Virus record (IMG/VR): IMGVR_UViG_2757320370_000007
Location: 73,719 to 137,718 of that record
From: a virus
Strand: one strand, 5' to 3'
DNA: 64,000 nucleotides
A model generated the notes under the pieces. That model was not told the DNA's origin and did not search any database. It saw only the letters and a list, made by a program, of their open reading frames with translations. Position numbers and translations under genes: made by a program. Of this stretch, positions 1,787-52,107 are shown one piece after another (positions within the stretch are counted from its first letter, which is position 1; the number at the start of each line of letters is the position of its first letter).

Positions 1787-1922
1787 TCACTAACCTACTT
1801 TATATGTATTAACTTTTAAAAACAAAAACTTCTTAATCACCACCTTCTATTGGAATATCTATAACCTCACTTACGTAAAGATATATATTCAACATGCTTT
1901 CGCATGGCGTTTTTAAAATCAA

Positions 1923-1995
1923 TGGGTCTCATCGGACTTGAACCGATATTATCTGATTTATGAGATCAGAGCCTTAACCATTAGACGAAAGACCC
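1923..1995 (-). tRNA. tRNA with CAU anticodon, probably Ile2 (lysidine type) rather than Met; CCA not encoded
   Basis: Cloverleaf GGGTCTT/GAGACCC acceptor, CTGAT-CTCATAA-ATCAG anticodon arm, ATCGG-TTCAAGT-CCGAT T arm; G1-C72 paired, so not initiator. Confidence 0.9.
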
Positions 1996-1999
1996 ATGA

Positions 2000-2082
2000 T
2001 GCGGATGGAGGGATTTGAACCCTCATGTCTCAATGACAATGGATTTTAAGTCCATCACATATGCCAATTCCGCCACACCCGC
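2000..2082 (-). tRNA. tRNA-Leu(UAA); CCA not encoded
   Basis: GCGGGTG/CATCCGC acceptor, ATGGA-CTTAAAA-TCCAT anticodon arm, long variable arm, GAGGG-TTCAAAT-CCCTC T arm. Confidence 0.92.
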
Positions 2083-2260
2083 AAGTTTCTTATTAATCTT
2101 GATGAAATTATTATTTCCTCAACCCTTAGCATGTTCCTCTGAACCTCCATACCCTTATATTACTCTAGCCCTTCCATCATGTCAACACATTTCATATATT
2201 TACTTTATAAATCCATTGAACCGAACAGTTTGTAGTCCGGTTCATATGTTTTTTTATAAA

Positions 2261-2641
2261 TTACGTGTATAACAGGAAATCCATAAACCAAGTACTAGGC
2301 GGTAGATCACTATGTATCTCAAAAATCTTTATTGCGTTCGTCTGATTAAGTTGCGACACTTTATAGTCATTTAGTGGCTCTTGAAACAAATCTTCTAATG
2401 CCGATTTACTATCTTTATTAAAGTGAGAACAAAAATCACTTACAGTGTAAATTCTATTTAATATATCCTTATCTCTTTTTTTAGATAAATATTCATCTAT
2501 TTCCCGTCTTGTCTTGGATTCACCGCACCAATTAATAATATTGCTTATATCGTCTTGATTTTTCAAAACAAAAGTAACAAAATTCCAAAACTCAAATGCA
2601 GATTTCTCAACCTTTAAGATTGGACTTAACTGATTTTTCAT
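2261..2641 (-). CDS. Hypothetical protein
   Basis: 126-aa ORF behind AAGGGG RBS. Confidence 0.6.
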   Translation of the reverse strand: MKNQLSPILKVEKSAFEFWNFVTFVLKNQDDISNIINWCGESKTRREIDEYLSKKRDKDILNRIYTVSDFCSHFNKDSKSALEDLFQEPLNDYKVSQLNQTNAIKIFEIHSDLPPSTWFMDFLLYT

Positions 2642-2838
2642 TACATATCCCCTTTTTGTATTTTTCTCTGTCGGCTTGCAAAATATAATAATTTATCTGT
2701 CTAAACCCTTACATATAAGTTTATACCTTGTCTTATACGTAATCAACCATAGACATGTTGCAGCGAAAGTATGTTGACCATTCCTTTATTTAGTACTTAT
2801 TGCAATAATTGTGTCGTATAATGTCGATATATATAGTA

Positions 2839-2917: not shown

Positions 2918-3292
2918 TTACAGCCTTCTAAATAATCCTAGGCAAGTCTTTATTACTTTCATCCTTTTATCAGCAATCGTTATCCTGTCATTTTCCTTGT
3001 CTTGCCCATAAATAAGTACGTTTAATTTACAATCTATTTCTGGATTCTTATTTAAATTTGCTATAATGCCTCTATCTGTTCTTATAAACCCCTCGTTTTT
3101 TTCTAGCAATCCATAAGACTTGTCGACAGAATTACAATCCCTATATTCTCCATTATCTGTTTTATATATCCTATAAGATCCCTCTCTTTTTGTGTATTCA
3201 GTACGAACATGCCTCAAATCTTTAATTTCTATCCATTCGGCTTCTTCTGCGAAGTCTTTTCCGTCCCACTTTAAAACCATTATAGATCTCAT
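2918..3292 (-). CDS. Stand-alone LytTR DNA-binding protein (no receiver domain)
   Basis: GFIRTDRGIIANLNK matches the LytTR F-x-R-x-HRS-x-x-VNL motif; start reassigned to ATG 3292 behind AAGGGAG. Confidence 0.75.
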   Translation of the reverse strand: MRSIMVLKWDGKDFAEEAEWIEIKDLRHVRTEYTKREGSYRIYKTDNGEYRDCNSVDKSYGLLEKNEGFIRTDRGIIANLNKNPEIDCKLNVLIYGQDKENDRITIADKRMKVIKTCLGLFRRL

Positions 3293-3319
3293 AAAATCTC
3301 CCTTCTTTATTATGAGAGT

Positions 3320-3352
3320 GCCGTGGATACTAAAACAAATGGCATCCACGGC
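3320..3352 (-). other. 11-bp stem-loop between agrD-like and LytTR genes (no U-tract)
   Basis: GCCGTGGATGC-N11-GTATCCACGGC on the minus strand. Confidence 0.7.
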
Positions 3353-3359
3353 CTAAAAC

Positions 3360-3485
3360 TTACATCATATCCGCTGGCACATCTTCCCCATGCAGGAATG
3401 TCCAGCTTGCAACAGAAACAGTCAGCAATACAATCATTGATAATCCCATTCCTACGAACTTCATATACTTGTGATTAATCTTCAT
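3360..3485 (-). CDS. agrD: AgrD-like cyclic lactone autoinducer precursor, 41 aa (absent from ORF track)
   Basis: MKINHKYMKFVGMGLSMIVLLTVSVASWTFLHGEDVPADMM; GGGAGGTGA RBS; leader, S-WTFL core and acidic/Pro tail; overlaps end of agrB. Confidence 0.85.
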   Translation of the reverse strand: MKINHKYMKFVGMGLSMIVLLTVSVASWTFLHGEDVPADMM

Positions 3486-4023
3486 CTCTTTTCACCTCCC
3501 TTAATGGAATATGAAACAGGAGGAGTGATTGTATAAAAATTGAAGTTGATATGATAATGTCGAATATCAGGATGCATATAATTATGATTGCTACTGATAT
3601 CACCTTAAAAATAAAGTGATTTTCTTTTTTAACTATTGTTTTACTTGCTATTTTTGATGGAGAATATATTAGACACATCATGATACTAACCAATAATATC
3701 ACTTTGTGATGGTCGTATAGCAAGTAACTATAATTAACTATAAGATAAATTAAAGATATTGATACTATCACACATATATCTGCATTTTTAATATGATATC
3801 CACCCGAGAATTGTCTCAATATTACAAATGGTATTGCTGCTTTTGCATATTCTAAATAATCTCCAGTAATCAAAGCGATTATAATTAGTGAAACAATAGG
3901 AATTATATTTGTGATAATAAATTTTACTGAATACTTAGTCTGAACAAACGATGGCATTTCATCTGGATAATCTCCAACAAGCCATTGGGCCATTTTTATA
4001 GAAAATGTATCAATCAATCTCAT
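3475..4023 (-). CDS. agrB: AgrB-family peptide-processing membrane protease
   Basis: LRQFSGGYH...C motif with catalytic His/Cys; multiple TM helices. Confidence 0.9.
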   Translation of the reverse strand: MRLIDTFSIKMAQWLVGDYPDEMPSFVQTKYSVKFIITNIIPIVSLIIIALITGDYLEYAKAAIPFVILRQFSGGYHIKNADICVIVSISLIYLIVNYSYLLYDHHKVILLVSIMMCLIYSPSKIASKTIVKKENHFIFKVISVAIIIICILIFDIIISTSIFIQSLLLFHIPLREVKRDED

Positions 4024-4663
4024 CTCTCTTTTCTTTCTTGGTCTCTAGTATAAAAATATTTATTAAGCACAAAATCCAGAAGATTATTTCTAGGATTACA
4101 TTATTAAAGTTATATATATTGATGAACATCAACATAACGCAAGCAGACGTAAGTAAGATCACATTGTTTATTTTGGTAAATTTAATTCGGTAGGTGTAAT
4201 CGTTAGGCAAGGTTGTGAAGTGTTTTTTGAGTTTTCTTAGCAACAAAGTTACAGATATCAATATTATTGCACTAATTATTTGTAAGGAAGGTCTCAAGAA
4301 ATCATTATTTTTAATTTCATTAAATCTAATATCGGTCACATACGATGTCACCATTATCAAAAATCCCTGAATTACTGCCTGCCCAACAAACCCCATCAAT
4401 GTTAATCTTAAAGACGAAAAAACCGATATTCTAAAATACAGTATCAATGATAAAAATAATATCGTTATACTAATCAATGGCTCATAATCTTTTAATGAGT
4501 CGTGAGTAGATATATAGTAATTTCCAATCGATATAACTAAAACGGTTAGTAATATCTCTCTCCAATAATTTCTTAATCTGACTTTGAATGATCCGAAGGC
4601 AAATATAAAAATTGATAAGCCATCAATCATCGAAAATAGTATGTATAACAAGGCACTTTCCAT
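4010..4663 (-). CDS. Polytopic membrane protein resembling an AgrC sensor domain, with no kinase domain
   Basis: About 6-7 hydrophobic segments in 217 aa; overlaps agrB start; no HisKA/HATPase motifs. Confidence 0.6.
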   Translation of the reverse strand: MESALLYILFSMIDGLSIFIFAFGSFKVRLRNYWREILLTVLVISIGNYYISTHDSLKDYEPLISITILFLSLILYFRISVFSSLRLTLMGFVGQAVIQGFLIMVTSYVTDIRFNEIKNNDFLRPSLQIISAIILISVTLLLRKLKKHFTTLPNDYTYRIKFTKINNVILLTSACVMLMFINIYNFNNVILEIIFWILCLINIFILETKKEKRDEID

Positions 4664-4691
4664 TTAACTTATACTCCCTCTTGTTAGTTAA

Positions 4692-4752
4692 TTAAGTAAA
4701 CATATATATATTACTTATAAGTCAATATTACCATGATATTTTTCTATGTCAA
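4692..4752 (-). promoter_or_regulatory. SigA promoter of the agr-like operon with an inverted copy of the phage repeat motif downstream
   Basis: TTGACA-16-TAATAT with extended TG (4752-4725); TTAAGTAAACATATAT at 4692-4707. Confidence 0.65.
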
Positions 4753-4784
4753 CTATTAATTACAAATAAAAAAGAACAAGTTTT

Positions 4785-5780
4785 TCAACTTGTTCCCGCA
4801 GGGTATAGTCTGTTTATAGTTTTTAGGTTTAGACAGTCTTTAGATAACCTGTGTACTGAAAGTTCACCGTAATCAAACCTCCGGCACACCTCTAATATTT
4901 CTTGTCTTTCAAAAACTCCTCTCTCTTCATATAAGTCTTTTGCATATTTAACCATTCCAGACTTCCTAATGTTTAGAGGTACTAATTCCTTATAATCAAG
5001 CCACCTAGATATGTTTTTAATTTTTCGACTCACAAAATTTCTAGGAGCCACTCCAAAATAGGTTGTATTCATATCTGCTGACCTAAATATATACCCATTA
5101 CTCACCAAAGTTATGTCTCTTGATGATTTCATCTTCACCTGTAGATTTGCATTACTTTTTACGTAGATTGTTTGATTGGCTGCTCTTATCAATAATGTCA
5201 CTAATTTTTCCGATACTTTCAATTTTCTGATCGTTGTTTCTCCATCTGCATCTAAATTTTTTAAAGTGAGGATATTATTTTCTTGATCAATGTCCGCTAA
5301 TTGCAATCGAAGTATCTCTGAGTACTCCCTTCCCATCAAACCCTCGAATAATGCTAGAACTAACGCTCTATCTTGTTCGTTTGACAATCTCCCGATTATG
5401 TCATTTATTTGTTTTTCGGTATATAAAAATTCTAAACTAGAATCTATAAAACTGCTTATAAATTCTTCAGATAAACCCGCCCCTAATGGATTTATATTAT
5501 TATCCCTAAGATCATTTTTTATTGCCCATGTTATATATTTTTTCATTTGAGACAAGGCATCACGACTTGAGTTGTAAGTGGTGGGAGAAAGCAACTTCAT
5601 CACTTGCCCAATCTCATTTACGTTGAAATTATATAAGTCTCTCCCCAATTCTTCCTCTACATAAGCCGCTCTTAGTAAAATTCTTGAGTACACAATTTTA
5701 GTTGATTCCGACAATCCCTTTAAATACCGTTCTTTTTGTTCAGCGTTGAAGAATTCATTCCCGTATATATTGTTAGCCAA
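4785..5780 (-). CDS. yopR: Master lysogeny repressor MrpR/YopR(SroF)-like, tyrosine-recombinase fold
   Basis: FNAEQKERYL, ELGRDLYNF, RALVLALFEG, LVPLNIRKSG resemble YopR; no HxxR motif; likely TTG start 5780 behind GGGAG. Confidence 0.8.
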   Translation of the reverse strand: MANNIYGNEFFNAEQKERYLKGLSESTKIVYSRILLRAAYVEEELGRDLYNFNVNEIGQVMKLLSPTTYNSSRDALSQMKKYITWAIKNDLRDNNINPLGAGLSEEFISSFIDSSLEFLYTEKQINDIIGRLSNEQDRALVLALFEGLMGREYSEILRLQLADIDQENNILTLKNLDADGETTIRKLKVSEKLVTLLIRAANQTIYVKSNANLQVKMKSSRDITLVSNGYIFRSADMNTTYFGVAPRNFVSRKIKNISRWLDYKELVPLNIRKSGMVKYAKDLYEERGVFERQEILEVCRRFDYGELSVHRLSKDCLNLKTINRLYPAGTS

Positions 5781-7113
5781 CTGTAACACTCCCTTGAACA
5801 TATTTTTCAAAATATTCTATAACCATTTTTCTGAGAGGATTAGAATTTATTCCTCTTTTGCTCTTATCATTAAATATTTCAACCAGTTTTTCATCTTTAA
5901 AATTAATGTTTCCGATATACTCCTTAAGTTCTTTTAATGGTTTGTTGGTATCCTGAAAATGTTTTGCTATTACAGTATATCCCAAGAACATTAATGGATG
6001 GTTTATCAAGGTATTTGAATATTTGCGTGGGTCTAATATGAACTCATCTACATAGTATCCAAACAAGTACTTATAAAAGTTTATTAAATATTCAGATACT
6101 TCATCAACGTCTAATCCACTTTTTAGATTAAAAGAATGCTCTATCCCATATGACATTATATCGAATGTTGTTAATTGTCCTGTTATTTCGCTTATTTTGG
6201 GTGCGGAGGCGATCTTACCCTTTTTAAACTCAGACTTCGGATGCTGTTGTAGTTCTTTAACAACTAGATCTGAATTTTTCACAGATAATAACTCTTTTCT
6301 TCTCTCTATTTTAACCGGATTTATTGTATTTATTTGTCCAAAATACTTTTGTGCTTTCGGAGTGTCGTAAGATCTAATAGACAGTATCATATCTTGATTT
6401 AAATATTCATTCATTGTCATGGCTCTCGAACCACCCTCTAAACGGTGAAATCCATCTAATATTGAGACCACAGCTCCATCGTTAATTGTAAACAATCTTG
6501 TATTTTCATTGTAAGTAAATGGTTTTACCTCGTTCGAATAAACATTTAAAGTAATCATATCTTCAAGGTAATCATCGTTAGCCATTTCAGAAGCAATACT
6601 TTTAACACTATTTTTGTTTAGATACGGAGTTGGAACGACTCCATCTCTTTTCATTACGTATACGGCGCTTCTTTGAGTTTTATAATCATAAAAGATTAAC
6701 TGAGAATTAGACATCTGTACCAAAAATGACATTTTAACAGATGTTAAAAAACTATCTTCTCTTATTTTTTTCACATCTTCAATAACTATAGGGAGCATCA
6801 ATCTATTTTCAAAACCATAGACCTCTTTAATATTTTGGTGTGCCATTTCAATCTCATTTTCAGAAAACCAGCGTTCTGGAGACATGTCATCGTAACCAGT
6901 TACTTCATGTATTACTTCCGTGATGACGCACAGTAATGATTCACTGGCTGCCGATAATGCTTGATCTCCTTTCGATATATCTTCAAAGGTTCCCAATGGA
7001 ACACCTTTATCCTTCAATATACTATTTGTTTGATGGACCTTTTTTCTTGTTCCTTTTATTTCCCTAAAACGTTCTTGAATATGTCCCTCTAGTTCTTCTC
7101 TGTCTTTTTTCAT
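5773..7113 (-). CDS. yopQ: YopQ(SroE)-like protein with DGQHR/ParB-DndB-type domain
   Basis: ILDGFHRL motif; 446 aa; immediately upstream of and overlapping yopR, as in SPbeta. Confidence 0.75.
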   Translation of the reverse strand: MKKDREELEGHIQERFREIKGTRKKVHQTNSILKDKGVPLGTFEDISKGDQALSAASESLLCVITEVIHEVTGYDDMSPERWFSENEIEMAHQNIKEVYGFENRLMLPIVIEDVKKIREDSFLTSVKMSFLVQMSNSQLIFYDYKTQRSAVYVMKRDGVVPTPYLNKNSVKSIASEMANDDYLEDMITLNVYSNEVKPFTYNENTRLFTINDGAVVSILDGFHRLEGGSRAMTMNEYLNQDMILSIRSYDTPKAQKYFGQINTINPVKIERRKELLSVKNSDLVVKELQQHPKSEFKKGKIASAPKISEITGQLTTFDIMSYGIEHSFNLKSGLDVDEVSEYLINFYKYLFGYYVDEFILDPRKYSNTLINHPLMFLGYTVIAKHFQDTNKPLKELKEYIGNINFKDEKLVEIFNDKSKRGINSNPLRKMVIEYFEKYVQGSVTVG

Positions 7114-9738: not shown

Positions 9739-10146
9739 TTATGTTCTCGAAAATGTTCTGGTGGTGCTAATTATTAATGCCCTTTCCAACTCTCGTTCAT
9801 ATCTTTTTGGCATGTCCGTTATTTTGTGTATTAACAAACTCTTGTCGATAGTAAAGTGTTGTTCAAACAACACCACACTGTCTTTGTGAAAACCAATTTC
9901 ATTTGCCTTCATATAAACGTGAGTGGGCAATTTTGCTTTTGTCATGCTGCTGGTGATTGGGCAAACCACCACGAAATTTGAGTGTAAATTGCTTCTATCG
10001 TTTGATATAACTATTGACGGTCTAACTCCTCTTTGTACTGATCCTTTTGATTCGCCTAAGTCTGCCAAAAAAATGTCAAATTGTTTAGTTACAATACTTT
10101 CTGCTCTTTCCATCACCATACTCATAATATCCACTCTCCGATTCAT
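9739..10146 (-). CDS. mazF: MazF/PemK endoribonuclease (EndoA/NdoA-like); alternative start 10125
   Basis: DIFLADL-GS.Q.GVRP-VISND-CPITS-KAKLPTHV-DSVVLFEQ-TIDK aligns with B. subtilis EndoA, including catalytic Arg and Thr. Confidence 0.92.
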   Translation of the reverse strand: MNRRVDIMSMVMERAESIVTKQFDIFLADLGESKGSVQRGVRPSIVISNDRSNLHSNFVVVCPITSSMTKAKLPTHVYMKANEIGFHKDSVVLFEQHFTIDKSLLIHKITDMPKRYERELERALIISTTRTFSRT

Positions 10147-36256: not shown

Positions 36257-36259
36257 ATA

Positions 36260-36920
36260 TATTTATCTTCTCCTCTGGTTTCAATTCTAAGTAAAATTTT
36301 CTTAAACATTTATAACAATTTCAAACTTTAGATGCTTAGTTGGAACAAATACATGTCCAGACTATAGACATCTTATTTATACATAAACAATAAGAGAAAA
36401 CTTGATATAACGTTCAAGAGCTTTTGAACTTGAACTTATCTCTTTAATTCCACACAATCGGATACGATACTCACCAAAATAACACCATCAATTTCAAACT
36501 CAAATTCACACATAAATTATAATGAAATTTCAACATGCCATTTCCGACCAACAACTATTCGGATTCAATCAGTGACTCCAAAATCATAAACAATAATAAA
36601 AGGAATCAGAGTTTAAAATTGATATGGGAATAATAAGTAAGATACAAGCATCCACAACGAAGATAATATTCAAAAATAGATATCAAAAATTCAAAATTCA
36701 AAACTTGCGTAGCGGACAATTTCCGAAGAGTTGGGAGCTACGCGACCATGGCTCTAAATACTGAGTCTATATATCTATATATCTATTATCTATATAATAT
36801 CTTTATACGTACCCGTTTATGCAGCATAAAACAACCAAGCGTCTGGTAATTTACGAACAGCATCTGGTAATTTCCGACCCGACTTCCTGCAAAAAACGGT
36901 TGTAGGTGAAAATGGCCTAA
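36260..36920. other. Non-coding region with iteron-like repeats (candidate origin)
   Basis: TCTGGTAATTT(A/C)CGA at 36842 and 36863 (21-bp period); TATATCTA-type tract 36768-36800. Confidence 0.5.
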
Positions 36921-36923
36921 TTT

Positions 36924-45657: not shown

Positions 45658-45716
45658 GTATATACATAGTTTATGCACTATTTATACATAGTTTTCCCTT
45701 AAGGGAGGCGCTTAAA

Positions 45717-46076
45717 ATGTCAGAGGAAGAATATTATGCATCCCAACCTGATTATGACGAAGATGAAAATTGTGAACTCCCTTCTACCTTCTTGTCTGAT
45801 GAGGATATTGGTGCAGAAACTAACATGATTATAATTCCAAGTTTAAAAATTGACTTAGAATTACAAATTGACAGTTACGTCAATACATTATCAAAATTAA
45901 AAACAAAGAATCAACTCAAGTCTGCCTTATTCCAAATATGGAGTCACGCTGAATCGTATGGCGCAATTATGGAACGTATGGATAAGCTTCAAACAGATGT
46001 TGAAACGTTACGATACGATCTTGAAGATGTTGATTTTGAGATTGAATATATGGATGGCAGAGACGACGAAATATAG
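45717..46076 (+). CDS. Hypothetical acidic protein
   Basis: ORF track; GGGAGG RBS. Confidence 0.6.
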   Translation: MSEEEYYASQPDYDEDENCELPSTFLSDEDIGAETNMIIIPSLKIDLELQIDSYVNTLSKLKTKNQLKSALFQIWSHAESYGAIMERMDKLQTDVETLRYDLEDVDFEIEYMDGRDDEI

Positions 46077-50535: not shown

Positions 50536-52107
50536 GTGAGAAAAATAGAGAAAGAGCCGACAAACAAACGACTGTATTTTGAAGTTGAGAAATATGTGTT
50601 GGAGCCACTAGAAGATGGCAGATTCACACGTTTAAAGATGTACGTCACACATGACGGAATTAACAATAATAAATCGAATATTGATCTATCTGTACTTCAA
50701 AGCGAAATAACAGAATCATCTATTTTAGATATTCCCGTATTAGCTCATATATTAACCGAAGACGAAGACTTCGGAGAACATGAAATGGAATACGACGAAA
50801 TAGAAAAAAAGATAACCTACATTGAAAAGCCTATTGGATTAGTGTCTTCTAAAAATCACAACTATCATTATGAAGAAGTTGATGGAAGAACTTATGCTGT
50901 TGTTGATGGGTATATTTGGAATGTTTACTCTCAAGATGCTATTGATATCATAAATCGAGATGAAAATATCAAACTTTCAGTTGAACTTGTCATTGATGAG
51001 TCTATATATGACAAGAAAACTAAAATTTTAGATATTAAGAAGTTTCGTTACACAGGAATTACATTACTTGGCAAAAAGTATGGCACTGGCATGGTCAATG
51101 CCCATGCAGAACTAGAAAGGTTTTCAGAAACCGATGAGTTCTCTGATAAGATAGAAGAATTAAACACATTCTTAATGCGATTTTCTCAGAATAGTGAGCA
51201 AGAACCGGGCGATGAAAAGTCCAATCTTGAATCATATACATTAAGTAAAGAGGAGGATAAAGTAGTGTTGAAAAAAAAGCAAGAAATTGCTGCACTTTTT
51301 AAGTTGACAGTAAATCAATTGTATTCTGAACTAAGCCGCGCTATGTCTAAACATACATATATCGATAAAAATTGGTATGGCGAATCAGTGGAAAGAACCT
51401 GTTTTTGGTTGAATGATTATGACGAATCTTTTGTTTACTATGTTGATGTTAAAGATAATTACATGGATAAAAAGGCTCCATATTCATTGGATGGAGACAA
51501 CGTAAATGTCGATCTTGATAATTGCTCTAGAATTAAATACTCTCCTATTGATTGGGAAGACGGTATGAGTGATGAAGATAGTGAAACGAGCGCAACCAGA
51601 GAAATGATGTCTTCTTTAGAAACGGAGGCTTTAAGTAAACTTGAAGAGATTAAAGTGGAAAAAGAAACGATGACTACTGAGTTTACCGAAAAGATCACTG
51701 AAAAAGATGAGTCAATTATTGAGTTGGGTAAAACTATCGCTGAAATGGAATTGAAATTTACTACTTCTGAACAACTGTTAGTTGAAAAAGATGAAGCTAT
51801 TAGTTCTTTGACAAGCGAAATTGCTAAATATAAAGAAGAAGAAGATATTGAAAAAGTGGATAGTCTATTCGTAGAATATTCAGCTTTGATTACTGAAGAC
51901 GAAAAACGTGAATTGACTGAAAAAAGAGCGACTTTTTCAACCTTTAATGATTTTGAAAAAGAAGTGAAACTATTTCTCTATGATCGCATTGTCAAAAAAG
52001 CAAAAGAACACAAAATGAATTTTATTTCGATGGGGTTACCTATAGACAATGAAGCACCAGATGATAAAAAAACGCAATCACTGTGGGAACGTCTAGGAAA
52101 TAATTAA
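50536..52107 (+). CDS. Prohead protease/scaffold (YonD-like)
   Basis: LSVEL...F...GITLLG protease-like N-terminus; acidic coiled-coil C-terminus. Confidence 0.7.
   Translation: MRKIEKEPTNKRLYFEVEKYVLEPLEDGRFTRLKMYVTHDGINNNKSNIDLSVLQSEITESSILDIPVLAHILTEDEDFGEHEMEYDEIEKKITYIEKPIGLVSSKNHNYHYEEVDGRTYAVVDGYIWNVYSQDAIDIINRDENIKLSVELVIDESIYDKKTKILDIKKFRYTGITLLGKKYGTGMVNAHAELERFSETDEFSDKIEELNTFLMRFSQNSEQEPGDEKSNLESYTLSKEEDKVVLKKKQEIAALFKLTVNQLYSELSRAMSKHTYIDKNWYGESVERTCFWLNDYDESFVYYVDVKDNYMDKKAPYSLDGDNVNVDLDNCSRIKYSPIDWEDGMSDEDSETSATREMMSSLETEALSKLEEIKVEKETMTTEFTEKITEKDESIIELGKTIAEMELKFTTSEQLLVEKDEAISSLTSEIAKYKEEEDIEKVDSLFVEYSALITEDEKRELTEKRATFSTFNDFEKEVKLFLYDRIVKKAKEHKMNFISMGLPIDNEAPDDKKTQSLWERLGNN

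Follow-up and report, generated by a model that had tools for sequence, protein, structure and literature searches.

A candidate kinase-free agr-type signaling cassette beside the master repressor gene of an SPbeta-like Paenibacillus prophage

A 64,000-nucleotide stretch of viral DNA (positions 73,719 to 137,718 of the IMG/VR virus record IMGVR_UViG_2757320370_000007; hereafter the window) carries, directly downstream of the gene for an MrpR/YopR-type master repressor, a cassette of four genes that codes for a seven-helix membrane protein, AgrB, an AgrD-like peptide precursor, and a stand-alone LytTR DNA-binding protein. This cassette is best explained as a system for agr-type peptide quorum sensing that operates without a kinase and forms a fixed module in the lysogeny region of SPbeta-like Paenibacillus phages, an explanation that we hold with about even confidence. 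To our knowledge, peptide communication by phages is known mainly from the arbitrium system, and every known case of agr signaling relies on a kinase together with a phosphorylated regulator. The proposed module would join an agr-type cyclic signal to a kinase-free route from membrane to DNA, fixed beside the master repressor of the phage lineage.

In the proposed mechanism, a strong SigA-type promoter behind the mrpR terminator would drive all four genes, and a hairpin before lytTR would probably lower the dose of the LytTR protein. AgrB, through His77 and Cys84, would cut the AgrD-like precursor after Leu31, and the hydroxyl group of Ser27 would close a five-residue lactone, SWTFL, yielding a mature signal that either has no tail or carries one Ala. 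The seven-helix protein would then bind the peptide on its variable outer face, whereas its conserved cytoplasmic loops would hold or release the receiver-less LytTR protein with no phosphotransfer. The output is more speculative. The LytTR protein might act on phage promoters, for which the only candidate site is the direct repeat CGACA-N5-CGACA ahead of a gene for a 126-amino-acid protein. The purpose is likewise speculative. Lysogens probably emit the peptide constitutively, because the promoter has no activator site and lies among lysogeny genes, and the peptide might report the density of kin lysogens to prophages and incoming phages and thereby bias induction or lysogenization.

The cassette and its phage lineage

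All four genes lie on the minus strand as intact frames, in the order membrane protein gene, agrB, agrD-like gene, and lytTR (Table 1). A preliminary description, made from the letters of the window, had read this region as a four-gene operon with its own SigA promoter, and both the gene order and a consensus-type promoter were indeed found. The -35 element begins 33 bp past the mrpR stop codon (4785–4787) and the first start codon of the cassette lies 121 bp past it. The membrane protein gene and agrB overlap by 14 nucleotides, agrB and the agrD-like gene overlap by 11, and the first three genes are predicted to be translationally coupled.

Table 1. Coordinates of the cassette and of adjoining features in the window
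Feature	Positions	Strand	Basis or remark
Gene for a 126-amino-acid protein beside the cassette, candidate output gene (speculative)	2261–2641	-	Follows lytTR in six phages, 26–40% identity
Speculative candidate regulator site in the spacer after lytTR, direct repeat CGACA-N5-CGACA ahead of the next gene	2812–2826	-	
lytTR, stand-alone LytTR DNA-binding protein without receiver, 124 amino acids	2918–3292	-	AlphaFold2 and Foldseek
Hairpin between the agrD-like gene and lytTR, 11-bp stem	3320–3352	-	Folding of an 81-nucleotide stretch
agrD-like precursor gene, 41 amino acids: leader, ..SVA, predicted ring SWTFL, tail HGEDVPADMM	3360–3485	-	Motif and context
agrB, AgrD-processing cysteine endopeptidase, 182 amino acids	3475–4023	-	PF04647, E 6e-20
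Seven-helix membrane protein gene, 217 amino acids, without kinase domain; proposed peptide sensor and LytTR partner	4010–4663	-	AlphaFold2
Operon promoter, TTGACA-16-TAATAT with upstream TG	4725–4752	-	Promoter scan, 10 of 12 matches plus TG
mrpR intrinsic terminator, 11-bp stem and T-run	4772–4797	-	Terminator scan; hairpin and T-run kept in seven phages
mrpR/yopR-type master repressor gene, 341 amino acids from TTG start	4785–5810	-	Directly upstream of cassette
DndB-like gene, 446 amino acids, in yopQ position upstream of mrpR	5773–7113	-	phrog_5732, 9e-98; weak DndB

The junction between mrpR and the cassette is compact. The TTGAC and TGnTAT parts of the promoter are kept in seven phages, in all of which the terminator abuts the -35 element and in some of which its T-run touches that element. 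This leaves no room at the operon promoter for an upstream activator site or for regulatory repeats, and a search for direct repeats at positions 4650–4800 found none. Since this junction leaves no activator site, the operon is probably constitutive in lysogens, unlike the agr P2 promoter or the streptococcal LytTR systems considered below.

A second expression signal lies within the operon. The 81-nucleotide stretch that holds the hairpin between the agrD-like gene and lytTR has a predicted folding free energy of -26.4 kcal/mol (z -4.0), and none of 200 shuffled sequences was as stable. Every aligned relative inspected (loci L011, L018, L094, L095, L096, and L098) has a stem-loop of unrelated sequence at this junction, followed in several phages by a T-run, which suggests that a leaky terminator is conserved at the level of structure. 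The hairpin probably serves as such a leaky terminator, or as an attenuator, and keeps the LytTR protein below the level of its membrane partner.

The window is part of a low-GC island (~34% guanine plus cytosine) of about 175 kb, located at roughly 4.022–4.197 Mb of a host genome of 8.54 Mb and 49.7% GC. The island carries genes for a terminase, a portal protein, helicases, a tyrosine integrase, and an antirepressor, as well as two tRNAs. The repressor encoded just upstream of the cassette matches the Pfam families MrpR_N_CB (9e-26) and MrpR_C_cat (2e-15) and is 53% identical to its homolog in a P. sophorae prophage. Because these phage genes occur together with an MrpR/YopR-type repressor and with a DndB-like gene in the yopQ position, the island is taken, from its gene content, to be a large SPbeta-like prophage. 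Relatives of its genes are found in Paenibacillus, and the host is of Paenibacillus type.

The strongest link between the cassette and the phage lineage comes from phylogeny. A maximum-likelihood tree built from 100 membrane proteins places the protein of the window in an 18-member clade (support 100/99) that holds every mrpR-adjacent copy. All eight informative members of this clade (the window, the P. sophorae prophage, two IMG/VR or metagenome contigs, two further assemblies, and two more contigs) have the order DndB-like gene, mrpR, membrane protein gene, agrB, small peptide gene, and LytTR-sized gene; the sequence of DndB-like gene, mrpR, and cassette was seen in L011, L018, L093, L095, L096, and L098. 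Even the deepest branch of the clade, whose membrane protein is ~28% identical to that of the window, is linked to mrpR, and the two most divergent members checked are roughly 30% identical. The predicted rings differ between the phages of the clade (SWTFL, SWTIL twice, SWTLI, SWMLF, SWAAL, SWALF, and SLIFI), with the Ser-Trp start and the tail mostly kept, and as read from these precursors the variation resembles pherotype divergence.

A role in induction or lysogenization is suggested because the cassette is fixed beside mrpR throughout the clade, because its rings have diverged, and because no AimR was found. From this pattern of genes and peptides such a role appears plausible, at somewhat less than even confidence. 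If the module does control induction or lysogenization, it would represent a second, independently evolved phage "language" whose dialects can be read in the ring.

The preliminary description had treated the cassette as singular, which did not hold. The membrane protein family occurs in 257 of 401 Paenibacillaceae genomes sampled, spanning 17 of 19 genera and often in several copies. AgrB is encoded immediately downstream of the membrane protein in 69 of the 70 loci inspected, and a short LytTR protein (116–165 amino acids) is present in 54; the partners inspected have no receiver domain. In Cohnella nanjingensis (L013, 6304–7026), the cassette regulator is a 240-amino-acid tandem of two LytTR-like domains and not a receiver joined to LytTR. 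The host genome itself has three further cassettes of the same order, at L007 (3342–5026), L008 (3390–5100), and L043 (469–2262), with the rings SIVFI, SVLYI, and CFFIW. Cassette L008 sits next to an integrase gene in a predicted prophage of 58 kb. Four other loci, which are chromosomal (L021, L024, L041, and L046), have no adjacent LytTR gene and carry CTTGAAAA-type direct repeats with a 20–21-bp period, ~65–130 bp upstream of the membrane protein gene. This is the spacing of classic AgrA/ComE sites, which suggests that the regulator is encoded elsewhere.

Four published phages also carry the cassette, namely Brevibacillus phages Abouo (gp44–47) and Davies and P. larvae phages Harrison (gp38–41) and Paisley, in each case adjoining integrase and repressor genes. 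These were reached with a paralogous AgrB as query; megablast and tblastn searches of the phage collection with the window cassette gave nothing, nor did a search with a paralogous membrane protein. The LytTR gene of such cassettes is labeled "peptidase" in GenBank/RefSeq and in PHROGs (L051 4166–4534, Abouo gp47; L052 4148–4504, Harrison gp41; phrog_15081), which looks like a propagated misannotation. Papers on these phages list "accessory gene regulator B" in tables only, leave quorum sensing unmentioned, and do not discuss the cassette as a unit. Full-text literature searches found no paper that joins AgrB with LytTR regulatory systems and no description of a kinase-free agr layout. The layout itself is widespread, and what the window adds is the mrpR-linked clade and the diversity of its rings.

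Predicted signal, receptor, and regulator

The preliminary description had assigned an AgrB and a 41-amino-acid AgrD to the middle of the operon and had predicted the ring SWTFL as a Ser lactone, and these assignments stood. The AgrB residues R70, G74, G75, H77, and C84 are invariant across four paralogous cassettes, and the catalytic role of the His/Cys pair is known from S. aureus AgrB. None of the Pfam and NCBIfam AgrD models recognizes the 41-amino-acid open reading frame, which was assigned by motif and context. Its product can be aligned with the peptides that the paralogous cassettes encode, among which Ser27 and Pro37, 10 residues apart, are invariant; the same spacing separates the ring Cys from the conserved tail Pro in S. 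aureus AgrD.

Across 36 cassettes, the precursor's C-terminal portion has the pattern xxA-[S/C]x4-x5-P-x-E-L(-L-K), in which the ring residue is Ser in 35 and Cys in one (the CFFIW ring of a host paralog). Because this pattern is common to all 36, the predicted SWTFL ring closed through Ser can be said to follow a family rule. Just ahead of the ring, SVA, STA, or ATA resembles a signal-peptidase site, and for this reason the signal may lack a tail. Signals of the lactone kind are known from S. intermedius and, as GBAP, from E. faecalis. Production of a Ser-lactone pentapeptide by AgrB and the AgrD-like precursor is well supported by these family rules and can be considered highly probable.

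The membrane protein was predicted to be sensor-like, to span the membrane several times, and to lack a kinase, in agreement with what was found. Its AlphaFold2 (AF2) model, based on 94 relatives, is a confident bundle of seven long helices, with a predicted local distance difference test (pLDDT) score of 93 and a predicted template-modeling (pTM) score of 0.89. Neither Pfam nor NCBIfam has a match to the protein, and Pfam has none for the 94 relatives either; a language-model search likewise yielded no name for the protein. A word-based protein search found just a single relative for the membrane protein and no relative for the LytTR protein, and an exhaustive profile search was needed to collect the membrane protein family, which comprises 457 representative clusters at E<=1e-3. 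Members among the 150 listed are 75–234 amino acids long, mostly 195–235, and none is fused to a kinase; the named members checked are "hypothetical" proteins of Paenibacillus and Cohnella.

Comparisons of predicted folds provide the best hint regarding function. Outside the family, the folds that come closest are those of the N-terminal parts of HATPase_c_5 kinases of the AgrC/ComD type, with template-modeling (TM) scores of 0.57–0.69 over ~170–210 residues, whereas transporters score below 0.5. With two independent models of the protein, these kinases are the nearest non-family match at TM 0.65–0.69. These comparisons used the AlphaFold cluster library and the ESM Atlas with the AF2 model, and were repeated with the Atlas's own model. 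Applied to the model, the positive-inside rule predicts that the N-terminus lies outside and the C-terminus on the inner side. Within the family, the three predicted outer loops then vary most (entropy 3.0–3.15) and the inner loops are the most conserved (1.56–2.44). A receptor that binds diverse peptides and has a conserved partner in the cytoplasm would be expected to show this distribution, which suggests such a role but does not prove it. A role as a protease of the CAAX/MroQ type was also considered and is unlikely, as the His/Glu motifs of that family were not seen in the sequence.

The reported lack of a histidine kinase in the window extends to the prophage, since HATPase_c_5 and HATPase_c profiles have no match anywhere within its ~175 kb. 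Likewise, an ad hoc profile made from five kinases of the host found no AgrC-type kinase domain in any of 40 cassette loci with 3-kb flanks. One locus, L048 (1066–2115), is an orthologue of the host L007 cassette that has kept the membrane protein and the LytTR protein and has lost agrBD, and it looks like a possible signal "listener". The kinase-free route of sensing gains indirect support because the membrane protein has a sensor-like fold and conserved loops, because such a listener occurs, and because no kinase was found beside any of the 40 cassettes. These models are read most economically as sensing by the seven-helix protein coupled to control of LytTR without phosphorylation, a reading that is slightly favored.

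The regulator was also identified as foreseen, as a LytTR protein without a receiver. Its start is the ATG at 3292 behind the ribosome-binding site AAGGGAG and not the GTG at 3349, and the resulting form of 124 amino acids, which is the one called in the public collection searched, leaves no room for a receiver domain. The Pfam LytTR model scores 17.6 bits on this protein (cut-off 22.6), and a profile of the partner LytTR proteins matches AgrA in the PDB at 3e-4. In the AF2 model (pLDDT 84), the top 13 Foldseek matches in the PDB are all LytTR domains, including those of AgrA (4g4k, E 4e-5), ComE, and a B. cereus protein.

The sole lead to an operator for this protein, and a speculative one, is the direct repeat CGACA-N5-CGACA. 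It is kept in all six phages that have a spacer downstream of lytTR, and it lies ~75–90 bp upstream of the likely promoter of the 126-amino-acid gene. A looser form of the pattern has one match elsewhere in the prophage, at window position 50558 within the open reading frame span 50536–52107, with 0.3 expected. The possibility that the repeat is an SPBRE-like repressor site was rejected, given that the prophage has essentially a single copy of it. The product of the 126-amino-acid gene matched no family or fold, and a language-model search also gave no match.

Comparison with known systems and rival explanations

Canonical agr signals through the AgrC/AgrA phosphorelay, in which a kinase sensor acts on a regulator composed of a receiver and a LytTR domain. 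The window cassette shares with S. aureus agrBDCA the His/Cys pair of AgrB, a short AgrD with a five-residue Ser/Cys ring and a Pro six residues after it, a LytTR output domain, and a membrane protein whose predicted fold resembles the sensor half of AgrC/ComD. However, the membrane protein gene comes first, its product has no dimerization and histidine phosphotransfer (DHp) or ATPase domain, and the regulator has no receiver, so no phosphorelay would be possible inside the module. The ring is predicted to be a Ser lactone, and AgrA-type repeats are absent from the operon promoter, for which reason there is probably no autoinduction loop. The characterized P. polymyxa system is a canonical agrABCD (PMC13700820).

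A closer parallel for the regulatory half can be found in the LytTR regulatory systems of S. mutans, HdrRM and BrsRM, in which a receiver-less LytTR protein is co-transcribed with a membrane protein and no kinase is involved (PMC6193735). By analogy, a logic in which the membrane protein holds the regulator inactive is likely to be shared. Unlike those systems, the cassette has an unrelated membrane protein (seven helices and no match to DUF2154 or any other Pfam family), and its operon also includes AgrB and AgrD, which would specify a signal. We know of no signal for the streptococcal systems.

Among phages, Abouo, Davies, Harrison, and Paisley have cassettes with the same four genes in the same order and membrane proteins of the same family. 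Their copies, in contrast to that of the window, belong to the main clade of the family and are not linked to mrpR, and their genomes are 44–46 kb in size. The agr3 locus of C. difficile phage phiCDHM1 is a further case of a temperate phage with genes for production of an agr-type signal. That phage reportedly carries agrD, agrB, and a full agrC kinase gene without a regulator, whereas the window cassette has a regulator and no kinase.

In arbitrium (AimR/AimP/AimX), the system of Bacillus phages of the SPbeta group, the signal is a linear hexapeptide, which enters the cell by import and binds to a tetratricopeptide repeat receptor in the cytoplasm. As in arbitrium, the cassette would place a peptide signal in the lysogeny region of an SPbeta-type phage with MrpR, and the peptide varies among relatives; in contrast to arbitrium, the predicted signal is a cyclic lactone that presumably is sensed at the membrane. 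In the whole genome, the best match to the AimR model NF038310 scores 18 bits (cut-off 70) and lies outside the prophage, although a very divergent AimR is possible. It is conceivable, if rather doubtful, that the cyclic Ser lactone, the seven-helix receptor, and the bare LytTR protein together replace arbitrium, with phage-specific rings as private channels that set lysogenization and induction. If true, this would mean a chemically different form of phage communication and a new mode of transduction for agr-type signals.

Other explanations for the cassette must be weighed against kinase-free quorum sensing by the phage. A lysogenic-conversion module could give the host an additional quorum-sensing channel or an interfering peptide, with LytTR acting on host genes independently of lysis and lysogeny. 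The wide occurrence of the family in Paenibacillaceae genomes (257 of 401, in 17 of 19 genera) and the plain metabolic neighbors of some copies fit this idea, and the rings of the host paralogs offer possible targets for cross-inhibition by the phage peptide. Furthermore, conversion genes usually occupy such a slot, next to integrase or repressor genes and under a constitutive promoter. On the other hand, the mrpR-linked copies form a deep clade of their own and keep their position down to ~30% identity, which is not the pattern of transient cargo, and the sole conserved candidate site lies in phage DNA beside the cassette. We regard conversion as unlikely overall. If the module serves only the host, it would still be a very common sensing architecture of Paenibacillaceae (about two-thirds of the genomes sampled) of which no account was found in the literature searched.

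Another possibility, which is the chief competitor of the proposed sensing step but which we judge quite unlikely, is that the seven-helix protein is an accessory for peptide production that serves, for example, in leader removal, export, or self-protection. The peptide would then have another sensor, such as an AgrC-type kinase of the host, and control of LytTR would be separate. The membrane protein is indeed tied more tightly to AgrB (69 of 70 loci, with overlapping frames) than to LytTR (54 of 70), locus L015 has AgrB, AgrD, and the membrane protein without LytTR, and the conserved intramembrane polar residues S11, E/D14, and Q99 could be catalytic or line a channel. In addition, the host has several HATPase_c_5 kinases, and the LytTR-less subgroup with repeats of 21-bp period suggests a distant AgrA-like regulator. 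However, heterologous hosts given canonical agrBD alone make the peptide, as B. subtilis does with agrBD of P. polymyxa (PMC12180512). The L048 locus retains the membrane protein and LytTR without AgrBD, and the fold resembles the sensor domains of kinases and not proteases or exporters, with no kinase found beside the cassettes.

The view of the cassette as a remnant, inactive or in decay, that does no signaling in this prophage is very improbable. It could be argued from the LytTR score below the Pfam cut-off, from an AgrD tail (PADMM) that departs from the family PEELLK, and from departures of the phage-type membrane protein from the family consensus at several conserved positions. These departures, however, are common to a whole clade that keeps every gene, and the cassette has four intact frames with coupled starts, ribosome-binding sites, a consensus promoter, and the catalytic His/Cys pair; the two folds are predicted with confidence.

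Several results nevertheless count against kinase-free sensing or its connection to lysogeny. Foldseek searches with the membrane protein against the PDB and Swiss-Prot models gave nothing significant, and in hhalign comparisons the family profile matched four AgrC-type sensor domains of the host no better than it matched reversed sequences. A partial Mantel test of ring similarity against loop similarity, with AgrB controlled, gave r values of 0.145 for the outer and 0.148 for the inner loops, and the rings thus followed the outer loops no more closely than the inner ones. About one-fifth of the related cassettes, L015 among them, have the membrane protein, AgrB, and AgrD without an adjacent LytTR gene, a pattern compatible with a receptor role and also with an accessory role in making the peptide. 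The family is also mainly chromosomal, which keeps lysogenic conversion a serious alternative.

No persuasive operator for the LytTR protein emerged. Streptococcal LytTR systems have 9-bp direct repeats with an 11–13-bp spacer, located 4–11 bp upstream of the -35 element, and are positively autoregulated (PMC6193735). No autoregulatory direct repeats of the HdrRM type are present in the phage clade, and no 9-12-9 repeats of LytTR type were found at the operon promoter or at obvious lysogeny promoters. Across the window, 9-N(11-13)-9 repeats gave 11 word matches (about five sites) versus 2.4 in shuffled sequences, with none near the cassette, and upstream of the cassettes in 70 related loci LytTR-type repeats were not enriched (nine loci versus 6.5 in shuffles). 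The CGACA repeat as an operator stays speculative because its period of 10 bp differs from that of known LytTR sites. Overall, the interpretation in the preliminary description is supported in part, and the role in lysis and lysogeny that it proposed stays tentative because the family is mainly chromosomal, because no LytTR site lies at a lysogeny promoter, and because autoregulatory repeats are lacking.

Neighboring genes and repeats

Several other features of the prophage lie in the same region or bear some resemblance to regulatory sites. Phage-borne genes for tRNA-Met (CAT) and tRNA-Leu (TAA) are located just downstream of the cassette region (window 1922–2083, minus strand). Arbitrium in phage phi3T acts through MazF, which makes nearby genes of this type of interest. 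The module of the window includes, a few genes from the cassette, a PemK/MazF toxin gene (PF02452, 8e-24) at 9739–10146 on the minus strand, and in two relatives MazF-type genes lie a few genes upstream of mrpR, with a MazE-type gene in a third (L093, L095, and L098).

Two perfect direct repeats occur farther away in the window. The 11-bp sequence AAATTACCAGA (minus strand) is present twice with a 21-bp period at 36842–36884, within a non-coding tract of 667 bp (36257–36923) between genes for an HTH_36-like protein and a UvrD-type helicase, and may represent replication-origin iterons rather than a LytTR site. The 12-bp sequence TATACATAGTTT is present twice, 22 bp apart, at 45661–45695, in a gap of 59 bp before the gene at 45717. 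Both of these repeats (36842 and 45661) resemble replication sites or sites of some other kind.

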